From an uncultured virus (IMG/VR IMGVR_UViG_3300032050_000088) (Duplodnaviria; Heunggongvirae; Uroviricota; Caudoviricetes), in IMG/VR virus record IMGVR_UViG_3300032050_000088: 64,000 nucleotides of DNA; one strand, given 5' to 3'. How positions within the stretch are numbered: position 1 is the first letter of the stretch; the number at the start of each line of letters is the position of its first letter. Positions 36,466-61,490 of this stretch are shown here, piece by piece. Under the pieces are notes generated by a model that saw only the letters and a list, made by a program, of their open reading frames with translations, had not been told where the DNA came from and searched no databases. A program made the position numbers and the translations under genes.

Positions 36466-37038
36466 ATGAAAAACATAAAAACAATCTTGTTGTTGTTTTT
36501 TGTTATGATTATGCTTGGTCAGCAACAAGAAATAGACATTTGTGAAGAGGAGTCTAAAAAAGAATACACCTATTCAATACAGTCTGACACACCAAATACA
36601 ACATTTTATTGGTATGTTGATGGTGTTTACCATTTTGGACAAACTCTAACCGTAAACTGGGAAACTTATTCGCCCGGTATTCACACCGTAAAAGTTTATG
36701 GTAAAAGTGGAGATTGTAGGTCAGAACCCATGGAGTTTAAAGTACATATAGGTGAGTGCTCTTCAATCTACATACCAAACGCATTTACACCAAATGCCGA
36801 TGGATTTAATGATACTTGGTTCCCACAAGGAACAGGATGGGAAAGTATCGAAGTACTTGTGTTTGATAGATGGGGAGAGTTAGTTTTTCAATCAGTAGAC
36901 CCAAAAGGACAGTGGATTGGAAATTTTAGAGGTGGTGACTATTATGTTCAAAATGATGTGTATGAATATAAAGTCACTTGGAAGGGAATTGACAACGAAC
37001 CTGAAATAATTTTTGGTCATGTAACGGTTGTTAGGTAA
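36466..37038 (+). CDS. small secreted protein with T9SS type B C-terminal domain
   Basis: IYIPNAFTPNADGFND...VFDRWG...GHVTVVR. Confidence 0.9.
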   Translation: MKNIKTILLLFFVMIMLGQQQEIDICEEESKKEYTYSIQSDTPNTTFYWYVDGVYHFGQTLTVNWETYSPGIHTVKVYGKSGDCRSEPMEFKVHIGECSSIYIPNAFTPNADGFNDTWFPQGTGWESIEVLVFDRWGELVFQSVDPKGQWIGNFRGGDYYVQNDVYEYKVTWKGIDNEPEIIFGHVTVVR

Positions 37039-41494: not shown

Positions 41495-42016
41495 ATGGAA
41501 TGGTACATTGTAAGAGCACAAGCAAATCGTGAGAGAAAAGTCTCAGAAAGAATTTTAAAAGAAGCGGACAAAGGGGAACTCAATGGAGTAATCGGAAGAG
41601 TTGTGGTTCCAATGGAAAAGGTTTTCGCAACAAAAGATGGTAAAAAAACACAACGAGAAAAAGTTCTATTTCCTGGTTACGTTTTTGTTGAAACATCTGC
41701 AATTGGAGAATTAAAACAAGTTGTTAAAAAAATTGACGGAGCGACAGGTTTGTTGTCTGATAGAGCTGGAAATATTCAAATCGTATCAGACCAAGAAGTA
41801 AACCGAATGATTGGTCTACACGAGGAAAACAAAACAAAAAGTTTTTCAGACATATTCAGTGTTGGAGATGAAGTTACCGTAACTGAAGGTCCGTTCACAT
41901 CCTTTAAGGGGAACATTGAATTTATTGATAAAGAAAAAGGTAAACTTAAAGTAAATGTTCTTATATTTGGCAGACCAACATCTGTTGAATTAGAGGACAC
42001 CCAAGTAAGAAAATGA
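41495..42016 (+). CDS. nusG: transcription elongation factor NusG
   Basis: WYIV, FPGYVFVE, KOW domain GPF..F.G, IFGRPTSVEL. Confidence 0.93.
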   Translation: MEWYIVRAQANRERKVSERILKEADKGELNGVIGRVVVPMEKVFATKDGKKTQREKVLFPGYVFVETSAIGELKQVVKKIDGATGLLSDRAGNIQIVSDQEVNRMIGLHEENKTKSFSDIFSVGDEVTVTEGPFTSFKGNIEFIDKEKGKLKVNVLIFGRPTSVELEDTQVRK

Positions 42017-42797: not shown

Positions 42798-44390
42798 ATG
42801 GATAGAAAAATCAAAATACTCATTTCGTTGTCATTCGTCATAATGTTGGTGTTCTTCGTCGTTAAAACTGCGGTTTTAGTTGAACTTACCCCAAGCACAA
42901 GATTAACAAGAGGAACAGAATATGTTTGTTTTTTATTCTTTATCCCCGTTTTTTTCAGTTTGATTAGACACTACATTAAAACTAGTAGATTATATAATAA
43001 ATTTAAAGAATTTGAGAAGTTTGTTGACACATCTGTATTAGTTAGTAAAGCCGATAAGAATGGTAAGATAACATATGTTAACAAAAAATTCAGTGAAGTA
43101 TCTGGATGGAGCTTAGAAGAGGCCATTGGAAAAGACCACAAAATAGTTAATTCAGGGTACCACCCCAAAGAGATGTGGCAAGAAATGTATAAAACCACAA
43201 TCGTAGATAAACAAATTTGGAATAAAGTTGTAACCAATATTTCAAAAGACGGACATTTATATTGGGTTGATTCATATATTAAAGCCGAGTTCAGAGGAAA
43301 TGGAGAACTAAAAGGATTTACATCATTAAGGTATGATGTCTCAGATGTTAAGAAAAAAGAACTTGAGATTAGAAATAGAATGAATGCTATTAACCAATCC
43401 AATGCAGTTATTGAGTTTGATTTAACCGGTACTATAATGTATGCTAACAAAAATTTCTGTGATGTTATGGGATATGATATGGAAGAAATTACAGGAAAAC
43501 ACCACAGAATATTTTTAACTGAGGATTATTCAAATTCAGTTGAATACAAAGAATTTTGGGATAAGTTAAAGGGTGGTAATTTCATATCTGCTCAATTTAC
43601 AAGGATTAAAAAGAATGGGGATGAAATTTGGTTACAAGCCACATATAACCCAATCTTTGATAATGATAATAAAGTTATCAGAATTATGAAAATAGCGATT
43701 GATATTACTGATAAAGTTTTACAATCCCAAGAGATAGAGAAGAAAAACACTTATCTGGAACATGCTGCCAAGATATTAAGACACGATATGCACTCAGGTA
43801 TTAACACTTATATGCCAAGAGGTTTAAGTTCTTTGGAAAGAAGATTGAAAGTTGAAGATATTGAAAATTTGAAAATCGAGGCTCCGATTAAAATGATTAA
43901 GGAGGGTTTAAGACACTCACAAAAGGTTTATAAAGGAGTTTATGAATTTACAAATTTGGTTAAAAAAGATGTGGTGTTAAATAAAGCTGAATGTGATTTA
44001 AGAGAGATACTAAATGATTACTTATCATCAACGGCTTATCATAGTCAGGTTATAATTGAAGAGTTACCAACCATAGAAGTTAATGAAGCGTTGTTCTGTA
44101 CGGCGATAGACAACTTAATTAGAAATGGATTGAAGTATAATGACTCAGAATCAAAATTTGTAAAAATATATATGGAAGGTGATAACCTTATAGTCCAAGA
44201 TAATGGAAGAGGTATTGACCAAGAAGATTTTGACCATTTATCAAAACCATATACAAGAAAAGAAGGACAAAAAGAATCAGGAACCGGACTCGGATTAAAC
44301 ATATGTGTTGCAATATTGCAAGAGCACAAGTTTTTGGTAAGATGTGAGAAAAATGAGATAGGAACTAAACTGAAAATAAAAATAAAATAA
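42798..44390 (+). CDS. membrane-anchored PAS-PAS sensor histidine kinase
   Basis: Two TM; two PAS/PAC domains; H-box LRHDM; N-box NLIRNGLKY; DNGRGI; GTGLGL. Confidence 0.93.
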   Translation: MDRKIKILISLSFVIMLVFFVVKTAVLVELTPSTRLTRGTEYVCFLFFIPVFFSLIRHYIKTSRLYNKFKEFEKFVDTSVLVSKADKNGKITYVNKKFSEVSGWSLEEAIGKDHKIVNSGYHPKEMWQEMYKTTIVDKQIWNKVVTNISKDGHLYWVDSYIKAEFRGNGELKGFTSLRYDVSDVKKKELEIRNRMNAINQSNAVIEFDLTGTIMYANKNFCDVMGYDMEEITGKHHRIFLTEDYSNSVEYKEFWDKLKGGNFISAQFTRIKKNGDEIWLQATYNPIFDNDNKVIRIMKIAIDITDKVLQSQEIEKKNTYLEHAAKILRHDMHSGINTYMPRGLSSLERRLKVEDIENLKIEAPIKMIKEGLRHSQKVYKGVYEFTNLVKKDVVLNKAECDLREILNDYLSSTAYHSQVIIEELPTIEVNEALFCTAIDNLIRNGLKYNDSESKFVKIYMEGDNLIVQDNGRGIDQEDFDHLSKPYTRKEGQKESGTGLGLNICVAILQEHKFLVRCEKNEIGTKLKIKIK

Positions 44391-44398
44391 AAAAAACT

Positions 44399-44830
44399 AT
44401 GATTGATTCTATTTTACTTGTAGATGACGAGGATTTATTCCATTTAGTGTTTGAGGACAGTTGTTCTCTTTTAGATATAACATTATCTTTAAAAAGTTTA
44501 AATAGTTCAGATGAAGCCGCCAAATTATTTGAAAAATGGCAATCAAACAAGGCAGATAAACCTGAATGTGTATTTGTTGACTTGAATATTATCGGGTCTT
44601 CATTTGATGGTATTGAGCTTATTAGAAAGATTAACTTTGAATATGGTAATAATGTTGTAATCGGAATTATTTCATCTTCAAATGAACCTGAGGAGCAGGC
44701 AAAGGCAATTCAGTCAGGGGCTCAATTTTGGATTATAAAATCAGACGAGATTGAACCAAGATTAGAGGAGTTTAAGAAAGATTATGAAGGTTACAAAAAC
44801 AGAACCGCTCCGTTTAAAATTTACAAATGA
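44399..44830 (+). CDS. single-domain response regulator (receiver)
   Basis: LLVDDE, FVDLN, ISSS, IIK. Confidence 0.9.
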   Translation: MIDSILLVDDEDLFHLVFEDSCSLLDITLSLKSLNSSDEAAKLFEKWQSNKADKPECVFVDLNIIGSSFDGIELIRKINFEYGNNVVIGIISSSNEPEEQAKAIQSGAQFWIIKSDEIEPRLEEFKKDYEGYKNRTAPFKIYK

Positions 44831-45516
44831 TAAAATTAACCCCTGAAATACAGAAAGAATTAATTACCTTATCCGAAAACAAAAACTTATTTTTGGAAGG
44901 GAATATTGTTAAGGTAATTAATTCTGATGGGGATGATGATTTTAAAGAATACCTTAAAAAGTGTGGGGAAAAGGATGTTGCAAATAGAAAAAAGAGACTT
45001 GATATAACCAAACAAATCCAAACCCAAAATAAAGAATTATCTGATTTAAACTCCCAAAACCAAAAAATATTAGAAGAACTCCAAACTACATTAAAGGAAG
45101 TAGAAGAATCCAAATTAACATTTGAAGTTCAAAACAGAGAACTAAACGAGTGGAAACTGGATAATTTGAGGTTAACGGAAGAATTAAAGGTGGAGATGGT
45201 TAAATCCGAACAAGCAAGGGTTGAGGCTGAAAAGGCAAAACAACATGCCGAAAATGATTTGGATGTGTTACAAAAGAAAACTCAATTTGAGTTAATAAAT
45301 ACAATTGTAAGAGTTGCGTTGATTGTAATTATTGGAGTTGGGATAGTTACCACGGCATTATATTCTGTGGCATTATTCACAGGTCAAGATACACAAATAA
45401 TTGGGTCAACTTGGAGCAATATGTTTGGTATATTATTAACAAACGCATTTAGTATTGTCGGAACAATAATGGGTGTTAAGTACGCATCTGAAAAGCCAAA
45501 AAAAGGGGGTCAATGA
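44827..45516 (+). CDS. coiled-coil protein with two C-terminal TM helices
   Basis: Heptad-rich middle; two hydrophobic segments; ATGA overlap with the receiver gene. Confidence 0.75.
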   Translation: MIKLTPEIQKELITLSENKNLFLEGNIVKVINSDGDDDFKEYLKKCGEKDVANRKKRLDITKQIQTQNKELSDLNSQNQKILEELQTTLKEVEESKLTFEVQNRELNEWKLDNLRLTEELKVEMVKSEQARVEAEKAKQHAENDLDVLQKKTQFELINTIVRVALIVIIGVGIVTTALYSVALFTGQDTQIIGSTWSNMFGILLTNAFSIVGTIMGVKYASEKPKKGGQ

Positions 45517-45530
45517 CCCCCCATTTTCAT

Positions 45531-46388
45531 TTAAAATTTCTGTAAATCACCATAATTCATGTGTAATTCAGCATGTTCATCTTTCATCATTTGGTAAGCT
45601 CTTGCAAGACGAGTCAAACCGATACCACCACCAAATCTTTTAAAGAATTTGTGAGATAAAAACTCCTCAAGTTCCTTCTCAACTCGCTCTTTTCCAAATA
45701 ATTCAAACAATTTGTTAGAATATCCGCCATTTTCGATGGTATAAAACATTTCTCTCATTTCATCAACGTCACAACTTCTTTCAGCAGAGCCAATAGTTTC
45801 TTGACCATAAAGAATAACATCAATTTTGTTAAATTTGTCATTCTGACCTGACTTCATATTCCAAAATGGGTTAGTCCTGAGTGGGAAATTTTGTAGAGAT
45901 ACAACACAACCTTTTTCTTTCCACATTCTTGACTCATGTTCGTTTTCCAAAATCTTAACTCCACCGTATTCGCTACAAACATCATCGTAATTTACTTCGA
46001 CTGGGGTGTCAAAACCTAAAAACGTTAAAAGTTCCAATTCCAATCTTTTTAATTCTTCCATTCCACCTTTTGATTCAAACTCAAACATGGGAAAGATTAA
46101 TTCGTGACGACCAGGGATTGGGTCTTTTTCTTGACGATAAGAAGTTGAGATACAGAACACACCTGGCCACTCAGGATTCTTTAATAGTTCATACTCCAAC
46201 CACATCTGACCTGTTTGGGGTAACGGCCAAATCTCACCTTTATACTCAAATGTGGTGATTGAGTGTGGATTCTCACATGCCGCAAGAATTGATAGTCTTG
46301 ATTGAGTAGGAACCTCAATAAAACCTTTGTTTAGGAAAAAAGTCCTCATTTTTTGGACCAACTCGTGATAAATTTTTGTGTTTTTCAT
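45531..46388 (-). CDS. AsnRS catalytic-domain paralog (asparagine synthetase-like), no anticodon-binding domain
   Basis: Class II aaRS motifs: F.EVPT, SYRQE...RH...F.MFEFE, GSAER, GGGIGLTRL; only 285 aa. Confidence 0.75.
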   Translation of the reverse strand: MKNTKIYHELVQKMRTFFLNKGFIEVPTQSRLSILAACENPHSITTFEYKGEIWPLPQTGQMWLEYELLKNPEWPGVFCISTSYRQEKDPIPGRHELIFPMFEFESKGGMEELKRLELELLTFLGFDTPVEVNYDDVCSEYGGVKILENEHESRMWKEKGCVVSLQNFPLRTNPFWNMKSGQNDKFNKIDVILYGQETIGSAERSCDVDEMREMFYTIENGGYSNKLFELFGKERVEKELEEFLSHKFFKRFGGGIGLTRLARAYQMMKDEHAELHMNYGDLQKF

Positions 46389-46401
46389 ATAACTTTTGGG
46401 T

Positions 46402-46427
46402 AAAAAAAAACCTCCCGAAGGAGGTTT
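46402..46427 (-). terminator. terminator hairpin in the leader of the Asn synthetase-like gene
   Basis: Minus strand AAACCTCC-TTCG-GGAGG-T9, 13 nt before the ATG. Confidence 0.85.
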
Positions 46428-46431
46428 ACGT

Positions 46432-46461
46432 TTATTTATTATTTATTAAATTGTTTATCAT
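46432..46461 (-). CDS. putative Asn-rich leader peptide MINNLINNK
   Basis: ATG 6 nt after TATTTAT (46468-46474); 4 of 9 codons are Asn; stop 4 nt before the hairpin. Confidence 0.6.
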   Translation of the reverse strand: MINNLINNK

Positions 46462-46532
46462 TTTGATATAAATACGGCACAAAGTTGAAAAATAAATAGG
46501 TTTTTTAATTTTTTTTTGTAGTATTTATAGAT

Positions 46533-47573
46533 ATGAAAGTTTTATTGTCTGAAGAACAGTTAAAAACATTAATTAAGGAGGATTTGGGGGTGTCAAGGGC
46601 ATCTTTGGCTTATGCTAATTTAATTTATCAAACATTAGAATCAAAAGCGGTTGAATTCATGGAATTAAGAAATGAATCTCAAGAAAAAATTGTTATCAGT
46701 TTACAAGATATGTCAAGAATTTATCAATCCAGTATGGATGACTATATTGAGTTACCTGTTGAAAAAATCGAGATTAATTTTATTTGTAGTAAGATTCCGA
46801 AAGGTAATAAAAATATTAAATTCACATCAGGAGGTGGTTTTGAATCAATAGACAAAAAATCTTTTGGTGGTTCTTATTTAAAAGAACCGTCATTAGAATT
46901 ACCAAAATATGTTTTAGAGGAAGTTACACAAACTTTAGTTGCTAAATTTAGTTTGTATTTCAAATTGAGTTCAGATTTTAGTGACGAATTTAAAGATAAG
47001 GCACTATATGATTTGAGAGATACGATAATACATGAATGTAACCATCTTTTTGAAAGTTATAAAAGAGCCGAGTCAGGAGCAAAACAATTCAACGTTTCTT
47101 TAAGCTGGGTAGGGGGTAAAAATTATAATGTTAATAGAGAAATATTCAAAATCTGGCAAGAATTTCTTGATATGATTTATTATTCAGAGCCATATGAAAT
47201 AAATGCCAAATCACAAGAAGCGGTAAGTCAAACATCTATCATGTCATTCGATGAATTCAAAAAAACCAAATTTTGGCAAGATTCATCAGTTATGAAAAAT
47301 TTTAACTCAGAATTATATATTGATAAATTATTGAGTAAAATTCAAGAAGTAAATCCTGAAAAAACCATATCTATCTTAAATAATCTATATAAATGGTTCA
47401 TGACGGATTATTATAAATGGATGAAAGTTCATGGTGAGTCTCCTGCCAGATACATTGAAAAAACAACAGGGTTGTTTGACTTAGTTAAGAAGTTTAAAAG
47501 TAGAATTAACAAAGCTGGTGACAAATTACAGAGAAATTACATGAGACTGTATACTTTGGACCTCGAAAAATAA
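46533..47573 (+). CDS. HEXXH zincin-like protein with MKVLLSEEQL leader
   Basis: IHECNH...EPYEINA; paralog of 1313. Confidence 0.7.
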   Translation: MKVLLSEEQLKTLIKEDLGVSRASLAYANLIYQTLESKAVEFMELRNESQEKIVISLQDMSRIYQSSMDDYIELPVEKIEINFICSKIPKGNKNIKFTSGGGFESIDKKSFGGSYLKEPSLELPKYVLEEVTQTLVAKFSLYFKLSSDFSDEFKDKALYDLRDTIIHECNHLFESYKRAESGAKQFNVSLSWVGGKNYNVNREIFKIWQEFLDMIYYSEPYEINAKSQEAVSQTSIMSFDEFKKTKFWQDSSVMKNFNSELYIDKLLSKIQEVNPEKTISILNNLYKWFMTDYYKWMKVHGESPARYIEKTTGLFDLVKKFKSRINKAGDKLQRNYMRLYTLDLEK

Positions 47574-47717: not shown

Positions 47718-49595
47718 ATGGGTAAAATTATAGGTATTGATTTAGGAACAACAAATTCGTGTGTTGCCGTTATGGAAAATGGTGAACCTGTTGTGATTAC
47801 AAACAGTGAAGGAAAAAGAACCACCCCTTCGATTGTTGGTTTTTCAAATGGTGGTGAGAGAAAGGTTGGTGACCCGGCAAAACGTCAAGCGGTTACAAAT
47901 CCTGATAAAACAGTTTACTCTATTAAGCGTTTTATGGGTGCAAGCTTTGATGAAAGTAAAAAAGAAATCAAGCGTGTTCCTTATAAAGTGGTTAAGGGTG
48001 AAGGTAACACTCCTCGTGTTCAAATTGAGGATAAGAAGTATTCTGCTCAGGAAATCTCGGCGATGGTTCTTCAGAAAATGAAGCAAACTGCTGAAGATTA
48101 TTTGGGGGAAACTGTGACCGATGCGGTTATTACAGTACCCGCGTATTTCAATGATGCTCAACGTCAAGCAACAAAAGAAGCTGGTGAAATTGCGGGTCTA
48201 ACTGTTAAACGTATCATCAACGAACCAACCGCAGCTGCACTTGCCTATGGTCTTGACAAAAAAGGTCAGGATATGAAAGTTGTTGTGTTCGACTGTGGTG
48301 GTGGTACTCATGACGTATCAGTTCTTGAACTTGGTGACGGCGTATTTGAAGTTTTGTCAACTGACGGTGATACTCACCTCGGTGGTGATGACTTTGACCA
48401 AGCAATTATTGATTGGTTGGCAAAAGAGTTCCAAGATGAAAATGGAGTTGATTTGACAAAAGACCCGATGGCTCTTCAGCGTCTTCGTGAAGGTGCTGAA
48501 AAGGCAAAGATTGAATTGTCATCTTCACCATCAACAGAAGTCAATCTACCTTACATTATGCCGGTAGATGGTATGCCAAAACACTTGGTTCGTACATTGA
48601 CAAAGGCTAAGTTCGAGCAGTTGGTTGATAGTTTGGTACAACGTACAATTGCACCATGTAAATCAGCTTTGAAGAACGCAGGTTTGAAACCAAAAGACAT
48701 CGATGAAGTTATCTTGGTTGGAGGTTCGACTAGAATTCCGGCAATCCAAGAGGCTGTTAAAAAGTTCTTCGGTAAAGAACCATCAAAAGGAGTTAACCCT
48801 GATGAAGTTGTTGCGCTTGGTGCGGCAATTCAAGGAGGAGTACTCGCAGGTGATGTAAAAGACGTATTGTTGTTGGATGTAACACCACTTTCACTTGGTA
48901 TTGAAACAATGGGTGGAGTTTTCACAAAACTTATTGAGTCTAACACAACAATTCCGACTAAAAAGTCACAAATTTTCTCAACGGCAGTTGATAACCAACC
49001 ATCAGTAGAAATTCACGTTCTACAGGGAGAAAGAGCAATGGCTCAAGACAATAGAACAATTGGTCGTTTCTTCCTTGATGGACTTCCAACGGCAATGAGA
49101 GGAGTTCCACAAATCGAAGTAACTTTTGACATCGATGCAAACGGTATCATTAATGTTTCTGCCAAAGACAAAGCGACTGACAAAGAACAATCAATCCGTA
49201 TCGAAAGTTCAACTGGACTTTCTAAGGAGGAAATTGAACAAATGAAGCGTGACGCTGAGTTAAATGCTGAGTCAGACGCTAAAGCTCGTGAAAATGTTGA
49301 CATTATGAATCAAGGAGATTCAATGGCATTCCAAACTGAAAAGACTTTAAAAGATTTGGATGAGAAAATGACCGATGAGCAAAAAACTCAACTATCTGAG
49401 GCCTTATCCGAATTAAAAACCGCTTTGGAAGAAAAGGAAGTTGAGAAAGTTAGAGACGCGACGGCAAAAGTTGCAATAACCTCTCAAACAATCACTCAAT
49501 CAATTTATAGTCAGACCGCTTCTGAAGGTACTGGTGACGAACCTACTAATGAAGAAGTATCTGATGTAGATTTTGAGGAAGTTGAACCTAAGTAA
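47718..49595 (+). CDS. dnaK: Hsp70 chaperone DnaK
   Basis: [34 protein letters not shown], full length. Confidence 0.98.
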
Positions 49596-60597: not shown

Positions 60598-61089
60598 TTA
60601 TATGAAGGATTTTCTAAATTCTTCCCATACAAACTCAACTTGAGGATTTACAACGTCTGAAAATATTGTCGGTTCATATGGTTTTTTGAGTAATTTCATT
60701 CCGGCTTCATCCGGTGTTTTATTGTCCTTTGTTCTGTTACATGAAGAACAACAAGTAACAAGATTTAACCAAGTATTTTGTCCACCTCGTGATTTAGGAA
60801 TAACATGGTCAACAGTTAAATTTCTTTTACTACCACAATAAACACATTGATAATCATCCCGCCTAAAAAGTCTATGACGATTAATTTTTAATTTGTGATA
60901 TCTGAATTTAACATAATTGAAAAGGCGTATAATAAGAGGTCGAACAAATGACCTTAAACCTGCCATAATTGGCTGGTCGTGAGACTTTAATATCTCCGCC
61001 TTACCCTTATTAACCAAATTAAAACCTTTAAAAACGGTTGTTACGTTAATGGGGGTGTAGTCCGAATTTAGTACTAATACCTTTTCCAT
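60598..61089 (-). CDS. HNH endonuclease
   Basis: VLVLN..Y.P; RD...CVYCG...LTVDHVIPKSRGG..TW.NLV.CC..CN. Confidence 0.9.
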   Translation of the reverse strand: MEKVLVLNSDYTPINVTTVFKGFNLVNKGKAEILKSHDQPIMAGLRSFVRPLIIRLFNYVKFRYHKLKINRHRLFRRDDYQCVYCGSKRNLTVDHVIPKSRGGQNTWLNLVTCCSSCNRTKDNKTPDEAGMKLLKKPYEPTIFSDVVNPQVEFVWEEFRKSFI

Positions 61090-61207: not shown

Positions 61208-61490
61208 GTCTCCGTAGCTCAGTAGGATAGAGCAACAGCCTCAAAGGGGGCGTCTGATTAGAAATAATCAGATGGAACTTCTCGAATTCGGTGAAACCTT
61301 CCGAGTAATGTCGATGGTAATACCGAGCCAAACCTCAGAAATGAGGAAGTGTGTAGAGACTAAGTGGGAAGCACCTAAACAAATTAAGTTGAAGGTGATG
61401 ATATAGTCCAGACCACAAACCGAAAGGGTAGTGAAAACTATAGTGGTATGTCTAAGCTGTGGGCCACAGGTTCGAATCCTGTCGGGGATA
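61208..61490 (+). tRNA. tRNA-Arg(UCU); exons 61208-61241 and 61451-61490; CCA not encoded
   Basis: GTCTCCG/CGGGGAT acceptor; GCTC/GAGC D-arm; ACAGC-CT|TCT-AA-GCTGT anticodon arm; ACAGG-TTCGAAT-CCTGT T-arm. Confidence 0.92.
61242..61450 (+). ncRNA. group I self-splicing intron (IC3-like, no ORF, 209 nt)
   Basis: Exon ends in U, intron ends in G; P1 GCCU/GGGC; P GAATTCGGTGAAACC, Q GGTAATACCGAGCCAA, R GTGTAGAGACTAA, S GATATAGTCCA. Confidence 0.9.

Follow-up and report, generated by a model that had tools for sequence, protein, structure and literature searches.

How is a gene expressed when a terminator seems to lie between its promoter and its start codon? The question is raised by an uncultured virus of the Caudoviricetes, IMG/VR record IMGVR_UViG_3300032050_000088, from which a stretch of 64,000 nucleotides (the window hereafter) was analysed. 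On its minus strand, a 285-codon gene for a protein resembling the catalytic core of asparaginyl-tRNA synthetase (AsnRS) is preceded by a promoter-like motif, a nine-codon upstream open reading frame (uORF) and a terminator-like hairpin. A first-pass annotation had proposed that this leader is an asparagine-sensing attenuator. Our comparison of the locus with its viral and cellular relatives shows that the leader is real and conserved, and suggests that it is probably a ribosome-dependent attenuator of a stripped-down kind. The fuller reading, in which an Asn-rich, probably leaderless uORF governs in cis the read-through of the terminator into the AsnRS-like gene, is put forward tentatively and with rather less than even confidence. 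The elements, read 5' to 3' along the minus strand in window coordinates, are the following.

46468..46474, minus strand: promoter-like motif TATTTAT, read in the sequence, 6 nt 5' of the uORF ATG
46432..46461, minus strand: uORF of 9 codons, 4 of them Asn, ATG ATA AAC AAT TTA ATA AAT AAT AAA TAA (MINNLINNK)
46428..46431, minus strand: gap ACGT, 4 nt from the uORF stop codon to the hairpin, read in the sequence
46408..46427, minus strand: intrinsic-terminator-like hairpin AAACCTCC-TTCG-GGAGGTTT, read in the sequence and found by the terminator scan
46402..46410, minus strand: run of nine T overlapping the hairpin end, the whole terminator element spanning 46402..46427
46389..46401, minus strand: spacer ACCCAAAAGTTAT, 13 nt from the T-run to the gene ATG, too short for a promoter
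45531..46388, minus strand: open reading frame of 285 aa with its ATG at 46388, AsnRS-like, class IIb catalytic core (Pfam PF00152)

Every element of this layout lies, base for base, where the first-pass annotation had placed it. The upstream neighbour (46533-47573) is encoded on the plus strand and is thus divergent. Consequently, the terminator closes no co-directional gene, and the promoter of the 285-codon gene must fall in the 144-nt divergent gap. The annotation had also noted that little room remains for a promoter behind the terminator, which agrees with the 13-nt spacer and with the lack of TATTTAT in the 10-47 nt spacers of the relatives displayed. Two candidates, TTGCCC...TAAAAA as a sigma-70-like promoter and TTTG as a Bacteroidetes -33 element, were rejected as unconvincing by eye and impossible in the 13-nt spacer of the window. 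Folded as RNA, the window leader forms the hairpin as its sole structure (-10.9 kcal/mol by itself; whole-leader z-score of -1.07), and this hairpin is one of 10 terminator-like sites that the terminator scan reports over 3.5 kb, where shuffles gave 1.6 +/- 1.3. Neither at the gathering threshold nor at permissive ones does Rfam offer a family for the leader, the sole match in the window being a group I intron. The 23 weak Rfam matches obtained over 46300-46620 all fall below threshold (e.g., Phe_leader with 23.6 versus 55 bits) and are generic terminator matches.

The significance of TATTTAT is best appreciated at the scale of the genome. The window shares 99% of its sampled words, and an identical enzyme protein, with a 321,403-bp virus record bearing direct terminal repeats (G001), and is therefore part of a jumbo phage. 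TATTTAT is the top 7-mer upstream of the genes of G001, where it occurs within 80 nt of 100 of 321 crudely called genes, a 10-fold enrichment. Its distance to the ATG is bimodal, one group of 28 genes lying at 4-5 nt and another of about 40 at 13-17 nt, and 20 of the 22 TATTTAT-N4-ATG sites open frames of 41-464 codons. No Shine-Dalgarno sequence was evident by eye in the upstream sequences displayed. TATTTAT is best read as a -10-like promoter element placed so close to start codons that many mRNAs would be leaderless or nearly so, which suggests that such mRNAs are widespread in this freshwater phage group. Since the motif usually lies 4-5 or 13-17 nt before start codons, and since the ATG of the uORF follows it at N6, where real genes start, the 9-codon uORF is itself probably leaderless. 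G001 also contains 59 strict terminators, and the leader terminator is of the same type as those ending other genes. As a rule a gene there is followed by its terminator, then by TATTTAT and the next gene, whereas at the enzyme leader the promoter motif precedes the terminator.

To what extent is this unusual order conserved? IMG/VR holds at least 598 relatives of the enzyme, of which the best 80 for each of two queries were taken. Including the window this gave 161 loci, 157 of them with at least 160 nt of upstream sequence, which collapse into 92 distinct upstream sequences. Of these, 69 have a hairpin followed by a T-run no more than 110 nt from the ATG, as opposed to 0.0 of 92 shuffled upstream windows and none of 276 windows inside the gene when the same finder was applied. 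Among these 69 sequences there are 40 different hairpins, whose 5' arms are of 33 kinds, and 3-5 standard pair types occur at every one of the six inner positions of the stem. By direct count, arms of the same locus pair at 99% of positions while arms drawn from different loci pair at 49%. The leader hairpin covaries, as judged from these sequences.

The uORF accompanies the hairpin. In 57 of the 69 sequences a TATTTAT or TATTTAA-like motif is followed 5-10 nt on by an ATG that opens a short frame ending anywhere from 14 nt before the hairpin to inside it, and in the L018 and L036 families the uORF passes through the hairpin and reaches 41-44 codons. Another 6 were scored as having the terminator only, four of which (L075, L079, L080, L081) show a uORF by eye with a longer promoter spacing. 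A comparison of upstream regions, as the first-pass annotation had called for, finds uORF and hairpin together in 57 of the 92. A scan of three complete genomes of about 300 kb for the succession promoter, short ORF, terminator and gene returned the enzyme leader and one weak extra candidate, in the relative G004. Taken at the level of sequence, promoter, uORF, terminator and gene form one conserved unit specific to the enzyme gene. A further shared feature is GCCC, often as GCCCATACG or GCCCTT, which follows the T-run in most of the relatives L006-L064 and corresponds to ACCC in the window (46398-46401). The string T6GCCC occurs in 1-2 copies per relative genome of about 300 kb, one copy being the enzyme leader.

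We clustered the 57 uORF sequences at 50% identity and obtained 23 peptide families. Their peptides are diverse, as illustrated by MINNLINNK, MKRYELYTPNNYIT, MVTKKVKRKLRNLNNNNIFKKS, MHRKKQNKNNIIM and MENNITNNNYLLNKK, and differ widely between families while the corresponding enzymes are 71-82% identical to that of the window. Nevertheless all 23 families keep their frame open at least as far as 13 nt before the hairpin, where shuffling of the leaders would give 8.4 such families; the count is inflated by the definition of the class and amounts to 23 of 29 if the six terminator-only sequences are scored as failures. Within the families, substitutions inspected by eye for their codon position were few. 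Asn accounts for 21% of uORF codons in frame, as compared with 7.6% and 5.0% in the other two frames. Against composition-matched shuffles that keep the frame open, 77 Asn codons were counted where 41.8 +/- 5.9 are expected and 21 Asn-Asn pairs where 4.4 +/- 2.2 are expected, and none of 2000 shuffles reached either value. Lys, with 56 codons for 63.5 expected from the same shuffles, is not enriched. After clustering, Asn (74 of 405 codons for 45.1 expected, z 4.9) is the sole enriched residue, the next being Gly (z 2.3). Elsewhere Asn makes up 7.3% of G001 gene codons, 7.2% of their first 15 codons and 6.1% of the codons of 208 intergenic short ORFs. The first-pass annotation had cautioned that AAT codons are common by chance in AT-rich DNA; composition does not account for the enrichment. 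We consider the asparagine signature of these sequences credible, though not universal.

What could a uORF in this position do? Folding of whole and pre-terminator leaders in the 23 families disclosed no antiterminator or pause structure, which agrees with the first reading of the window, where no antiterminator helix had been seen. For most families the folding energy of the pre-terminator leader is 0 to -3 kcal/mol, with the terminator's 5' arm unpaired. The leading edge of a ribosome was taken to lie about 12 nt past the first base of the A-site codon, in line with toeprint and footprint work. Counting the 5' arm as occluded when the ribosome covers at least 3 nt of it, a ribosome with the stop codon in its A site occludes the arm in 20 of the 23 families, whereas one with an Asn codon in its A site does so in 3. 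The stall on Asn fails in the other 20 because their nearest Asn codon, in those with a short uORF, lies 10-29 nt before the hairpin. The window's last Asn codon begins 13 nt upstream of the hairpin, and a ribosome stalled on it would end at the hairpin base. The earlier suggestion that a ribosome stalled on the Asn codons blocks the 5' arm is thus contradicted by the geometry. Together with the lack of an antiterminator, this anatomy is what would be expected if a ribosome that has completed the uORF occludes the arm directly.

The following mechanism is therefore the one best accommodated by the leader. Judging from the spacing, transcription would start a few nucleotides downstream of TATTTAT, at the AUG of the uORF or beside it. 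Should no ribosome load, the unstructured A-rich leader would let the hairpin form and the transcript would end at the U-run, a default OFF state. A ribosome resting at the uORF stop codon would cover the 5' arm and prevent the hairpin, and RNA polymerase would enter the gene, the occlusion being direct and needing no antiterminator helix. PMC5021804 describes how intrinsic terminator hairpins are prevented when ribosomes closely follow the polymerase. The Asn codons would make the arrival of the ribosome depend on charged tRNA-Asn, in such a way that ample Asn-tRNA would give read-through and scarce Asn-tRNA termination. By geometry this is the most likely polarity; it is opposite to that of classical biosynthetic attenuators and to that originally proposed for the window, in which read-through would occur when Asn-tRNA is scarce.

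The enzyme downstream needs to be considered along with its leader. Residues 3-262 match tRNA-synt_2 (PF00152, class II D/K/N) with an E value of 3.4e-12, and a profile built from 26 sequences retrieves AsnRS first from the Protein Data Bank (PDB) (2xgt at 2e-9; human AsnRS at 1e-5), followed by an AspRS. The AlphaFold (AF2) model has a predicted local distance difference test score (pLDDT) of 88, and its Foldseek matches are led by AsnRS and AspRS catalytic domains with query-based TM scores (TMq) of 0.69-0.75, the structural targets being 420-490 aa long (target-based score, TMt, about 0.48). AsnRS 1x54 scores a TMq of 0.75, versus 0.63 and rank 44 for the archaeal asparagine synthetase A 3rex. 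No N-terminal anticodon-binding (OB-fold) domain is found in the 285 aa, which align to AsnRS from about residue 140 onwards. Pfam, the PDB profile and Foldseek therefore concur with the first-pass view of the protein as a paralog of the AsnRS catalytic domain. R85, E87, R94, H95, R260 and a GGGIG stretch are invariant in the 26-sequence alignment, and we take these residues to be class II motifs 2 and 3. The enzyme's LPQTGQMWLE aligns with LTQSSQLYLE of AsnRS; AspRS presumably has Lys-Gln where both have Leu-Glu, which would favour an Asn-type pocket.

The label of asparagine synthetase, given to the gene by analogy with archaeal AsnRS paralogs, fares less well. All curated models of AsnA, AsnRS, AspRS and EpmA are missed by wide margins (17.4 bits for NCBIfam asparagine synthetase A, NF005055, against a cut-off of 389), the fold is nearer to AsnRS than to AsnA, and cyanophage homologs have a tRNA-Asn neighbour. 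In the Prochlorococcus phages P-SSM7, P-SSM2 and P-SSM5, the homolog is annotated as a tRNA ligase and is followed within about 10 nt by an unusually long tRNA-Asn(GUU) gene of 86-88 nt, in the coordinates of each locus as follows.

L099 2278-2364: tRNA-Asn(GUU) of P-SSM7
L100 2298-2385: tRNA-Asn(GUU) of P-SSM2
L189 1366-1451: tRNA-Asn(GUU) of P-SSM5

In P-SSM2 this adjacent tRNA-Asn is the sole tRNA detected in the 252-kb genome, and homolog and tRNA may form a dedicated pair. The window has no tRNA beside the gene, and not one of the five tRNAs of G001 is for Asn. The enzyme is hence tied to asparagine by its fold family, by the tRNA neighbour and by the leader codons, and sequence comparison leaves asparagine synthetase activity as one option beside tRNA charging or something else. 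The asparagine synthetase homolog of the CmoY paper (PMC12783734) belongs to the glutamine-amidotransferase type and has no relation to the fold of the phage enzyme. The family as a whole is very large, with at least 8000 sequence clusters, all at E below 1e-5 and named only aspartyl/asparaginyl-tRNA synthetase, and is spread among jumbo phages, cyanophages, bacteria of the candidate phyla radiation (CPR) and DPANN archaea.

Species genomes yielded 305 relatives of the enzyme, of which the best 80 were taken; these include many from Saccharibacteria and other Patescibacteria, DPANN archaea, Dependentiae and Weeksellaceae, at 55-63% identity and in some cases on chromosome-sized contigs. Their enzymes begin M-[IKR]-[NH]-N-Y. 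A terminator-like hairpin stands upstream in 43 of the 72 usable cellular loci. In many cellular leaders (L195-L268, from CPR/Patescibacteria, Coatesbacteria and other contigs of metagenome-assembled genomes), the approximately 130 nt upstream again contain T7-8 and then GCC(C), and a second hairpin is frequent. In 27 of the 43 loci a frame opens before the first hairpin, crosses it and ends near the main ATG; 9 of these frames end 4 nt inside the main gene and 13 more end 0-24 nt before its ATG. They are 16-99 codons long, mostly 20-58, and several begin 8 nt after a TATAAT box. Among those displayed, the encoded peptides were not Asn-rich by eye, no count being made. A crude regular expression for the T-box core matched none of 77 cellular loci. 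If these cellular frames are real, the pairing of uORF and terminator would predate the phage lineage.

Several other explanations of the leader have to be weighed against the occlusion by a terminating ribosome outlined above. The scheme originally proposed, in which the 5' arm is shielded by a ribosome halted at Asn codons and the enzyme is induced at low Asn-tRNA as in the pheST and his leaders, has good biological logic for an enzyme making Asn or Asn-tRNA, and three of the 23 families (L029/L043, L033/L037 and L064) do place Asn codons 0-3 nt from the hairpin base, the window and the L008, L010 and L145 families being borderline with their nearest Asn codon 10-13 nt before the hairpin. 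We nonetheless regard it as quite doubtful, given that 20 of 23 families have no Asn codon within 9 nt of the hairpin, which leaves the stem free when the ribosome stalls, and that no antiterminator is there to relay a distant stall. A damper that is coupled to translation or constitutive, and is not specific to Asn, would have the terminator lower the output of a strong promoter or insulate the divergent unit, with a uORF that merely results from the ATG built into the promoter and whose translation gives a fixed read-through. TATTTAT-N4-6-ATG is indeed a general promoter and start design in this phage, and the frames of the CPR homologs cross hairpins with peptides that, among those displayed, were not Asn-rich by eye. 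Moreover, in 6 of the 69 viral sequences (L028 among them) an ordinary long co-directional gene ends 1-13 nt from the same hairpin in place of a uORF, with no Asn-rich end in the two that were read (L022, L074). Yet such a damper leaves unexplained both the in-frame enrichment of Asn as sole residue (z 4.9) and the presence of this layout at one gene among about 300 per genome, and seems on balance rather unlikely.

Timing by a dedicated factor has also to be considered. The gene would stay off until a phage elongation factor, or a modified or phage-encoded polymerase, ignores terminators, the T-run and GCCC being perhaps a recognition or pause site. The window does encode a full-length NusG homolog (41495-42016, plus strand; Pfam NusG 6e-19; 142.2 bits for TIGR00922, the cut-off being 135.7) that matches LoaP and UpxY, both antiterminators, less strongly, and T6GCCC is specific to the leader, with its 1-2 copies per genome. 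However, of four genomes with the leader only G001 and G002 have the NusG homolog, which was not found in G003 and G004, the latter rated 100% complete; GCCC lies downstream of the terminator instead of upstream; and neither the maintenance of the uORF nor its Asn enrichment would be explained. Factor-dependent antitermination thus appears unlikely. Finally, promoter, mini-ORF and terminator could be a separate small gene yielding a micropeptide or an RNA of about 60 nt, from which the enzyme gene receives leak-through. A stop codon a few nt before a terminator is the normal geometry of a gene end in G001, but the peptides are not conserved between families whose enzymes are 71-82% identical, the unit is always attached to the enzyme gene, and no promoter motif follows the terminator, all of which makes this very improbable.

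The attenuator itself, as read here, has evidence weighing against it, to which the six sequences with a long gene in place of the uORF also belong. Among the 92 upstream sequences, 23 have no hairpin with a T-run, 8 of which have another leader (hairpin, A10, TTTCT, ATG) and 15 nothing recognisable. The kinetics would be tight, since a ribosome would have to start on a leaderless 9-codon uORF and translate it in the time that the polymerase needs for about 30 nt, and folding shows no pause hairpin. An enzyme supplying Asn or Asn-tRNA that is switched ON at ample Asn-tRNA follows an odd logic. The variant MRKKTQK has no Asn at all, MRKKTQNK, MSKNLQHI and the L036 peptide have one Asn each, an Asn-Asn pair is present in just 12 of the 23 families, and since the families are related by descent the enrichment statistics overstate their independence. 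In the window uORF, AACAAT...AATAAATAAA resembles an A-rich motif that relatives place after the terminator, so that some Asn codons of this phage could reflect a non-coding motif. Lake-water metatranscriptomes (two runs, shares of 0.18 and 0.08) contributed four pieces of 43-185 nt in the gene body only, at a depth of 2-3.5, which, all lying off the leader, are uninformative on starts, ends and read-through.

How does the leader compare with known systems? Leader peptides controlling transcription attenuation are known for trp, his, leu, thr, pheA and pheST-pheM, pheST coding for an aminoacyl-tRNA synthetase so controlled. As in the trp, his and pheST leaders, a short uORF rich in codons of the residue linked to the enzyme is followed by an intrinsic terminator before the gene. 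Unlike them, the phage leader has no antiterminator or pause hairpin, has a uORF that is probably leaderless, resides in a phage and has a geometry suggestive of the opposite polarity; Asn is moreover not among the Rfam leader families. In the pyrBI and pyrE attenuators, a ribosome that closely follows the polymerase keeps the terminator hairpin from forming by its own presence. The phage leader likewise lacks an antiterminator, its uORF ending at the terminator (20 of 23 families) or crossing it (L018, L036 and the bacterial homologs). The pyr attenuators sense UTP through polymerase pausing, whereas the variable here would be the decoding of Asn, and no pause site was identified. A general description of leader-peptide attenuators of amino-acid operons is given in PMC1183508.

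The mycobacterial leaderless polycysteine short ORFs are reported (bioRxiv 10.1101/834739) to act on translation by unmasking a ribosome-binding site. They share with the phage leader a leaderless short ORF rich in one residue and the control of a downstream gene through ribosome position, and differ from it in that the phage structure is a canonical terminator 10-47 nt before an ATG with no evident Shine-Dalgarno sequence. The Corynebacterium ilvB-II uORF motif, as described in PMC10272879, has a conserved in-frame start and stop and a peptide rich in the cognate residue, from which attenuation was inferred. The kind of evidence is the same as ours; amino acid and host are different and that motif is cellular, not viral. 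As for the enzyme, the archaeal AsnRS-like asparagine synthetase (PDB 3rex) and Escherichia coli AsnA similarly consist of the class II core alone, about 290 aa with no anticodon-binding domain. The phage protein, known from sequence and model, differs from them in fitting AsnRS better (TMq 0.75 versus 0.63; profile 2e-9) and in failing the NCBIfam AsnA model. A literature search with supplements outside its scope found no description of an asparagine leader peptide, of an amino-acid attenuator encoded by a phage, or of the phage enzyme family treated here.

The surroundings of the gene include two further elements of the same kinds as those of the leader.

45504..45522, either strand: bidirectional terminator common to the enzyme gene and the convergent gene 44827-45516 (plus strand), from the sequence and the terminator scan
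46522..46528, plus strand: divergent TATTTAT, 4 nt (agat) before the ATG at 46533 of the neighbouring 346-aa gene, from the list of TATTTAT-N4-ATG sites

Genes nearby encode a PAS histidine kinase and response regulator, Hsp70, thymidylate synthase, an FKBP isomerase, the NusG homolog and a CHU_C-domain protein. The PAS histidine kinase (42798-44830, plus strand) has the response-regulator receiver protein adjacent to it, the Hsp70/DnaK (47718-49595, plus strand) is full, and the CHU_C signal domain at 36466-37038 (plus strand) belongs to type IX secretion, a hallmark of Bacteroidota that hints at the host. The nearest enzyme copies labelled as cellular lie on contigs binned as Fluviicola, Cytophagaceae, Spirosoma and Crocinitomicaceae. 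These observations hint at a freshwater Bacteroidota host and are no demonstration of it. The group I intron mentioned above (Rfam RF00028, 75.6 bits; 61232-61432, plus strand) adjoins an HNH endonuclease gene (60598-61089, minus strand). A different phage clade (L021, L027, L032, L034, L044, L054, L141 and L101, the last being LR756501) has in the last 45 nt or so before the gene a GATATATAC-like motif, a hairpin, ten A, TTTCT or a close variant, and the ATG. This leader has neither T-run nor uORF and hence no terminator on either strand.

Viewed across the whole family, the leader may be an ancient two-part switch devoid of antiterminator, in which a minimal AsnRS-like enzyme is accompanied, in jumbo phages and candidate-phyla bacteria alike, by a leaderless uORF abutting or enclosing a terminator. 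The phage version would have been tuned with Asn codons to read the state of tRNA-Asn, be it its charging or its integrity under attack by host anticodon nucleases, and so to set the output of an enzyme supplying Asn-tRNA or asparagine. We offer this wider picture as speculation, which we think more apt to be wrong than right. If true, it would have no described predecessor either as an asparagine leader-peptide attenuator or as an amino-acid-sensing attenuator in a phage. A working switch of this kind would mean that about 75 nt of RNA, with a uORF and a terminator alone, suffice for phages to gauge how well host translation is supplied with one amino acid, a design that could be usable as a compact synthetic part, and it would open a way into the function of a very large enzyme family that is uncharacterised. 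The leader also points to widespread expression of the leaderless type in a freshwater group of Bacteroidota phages.

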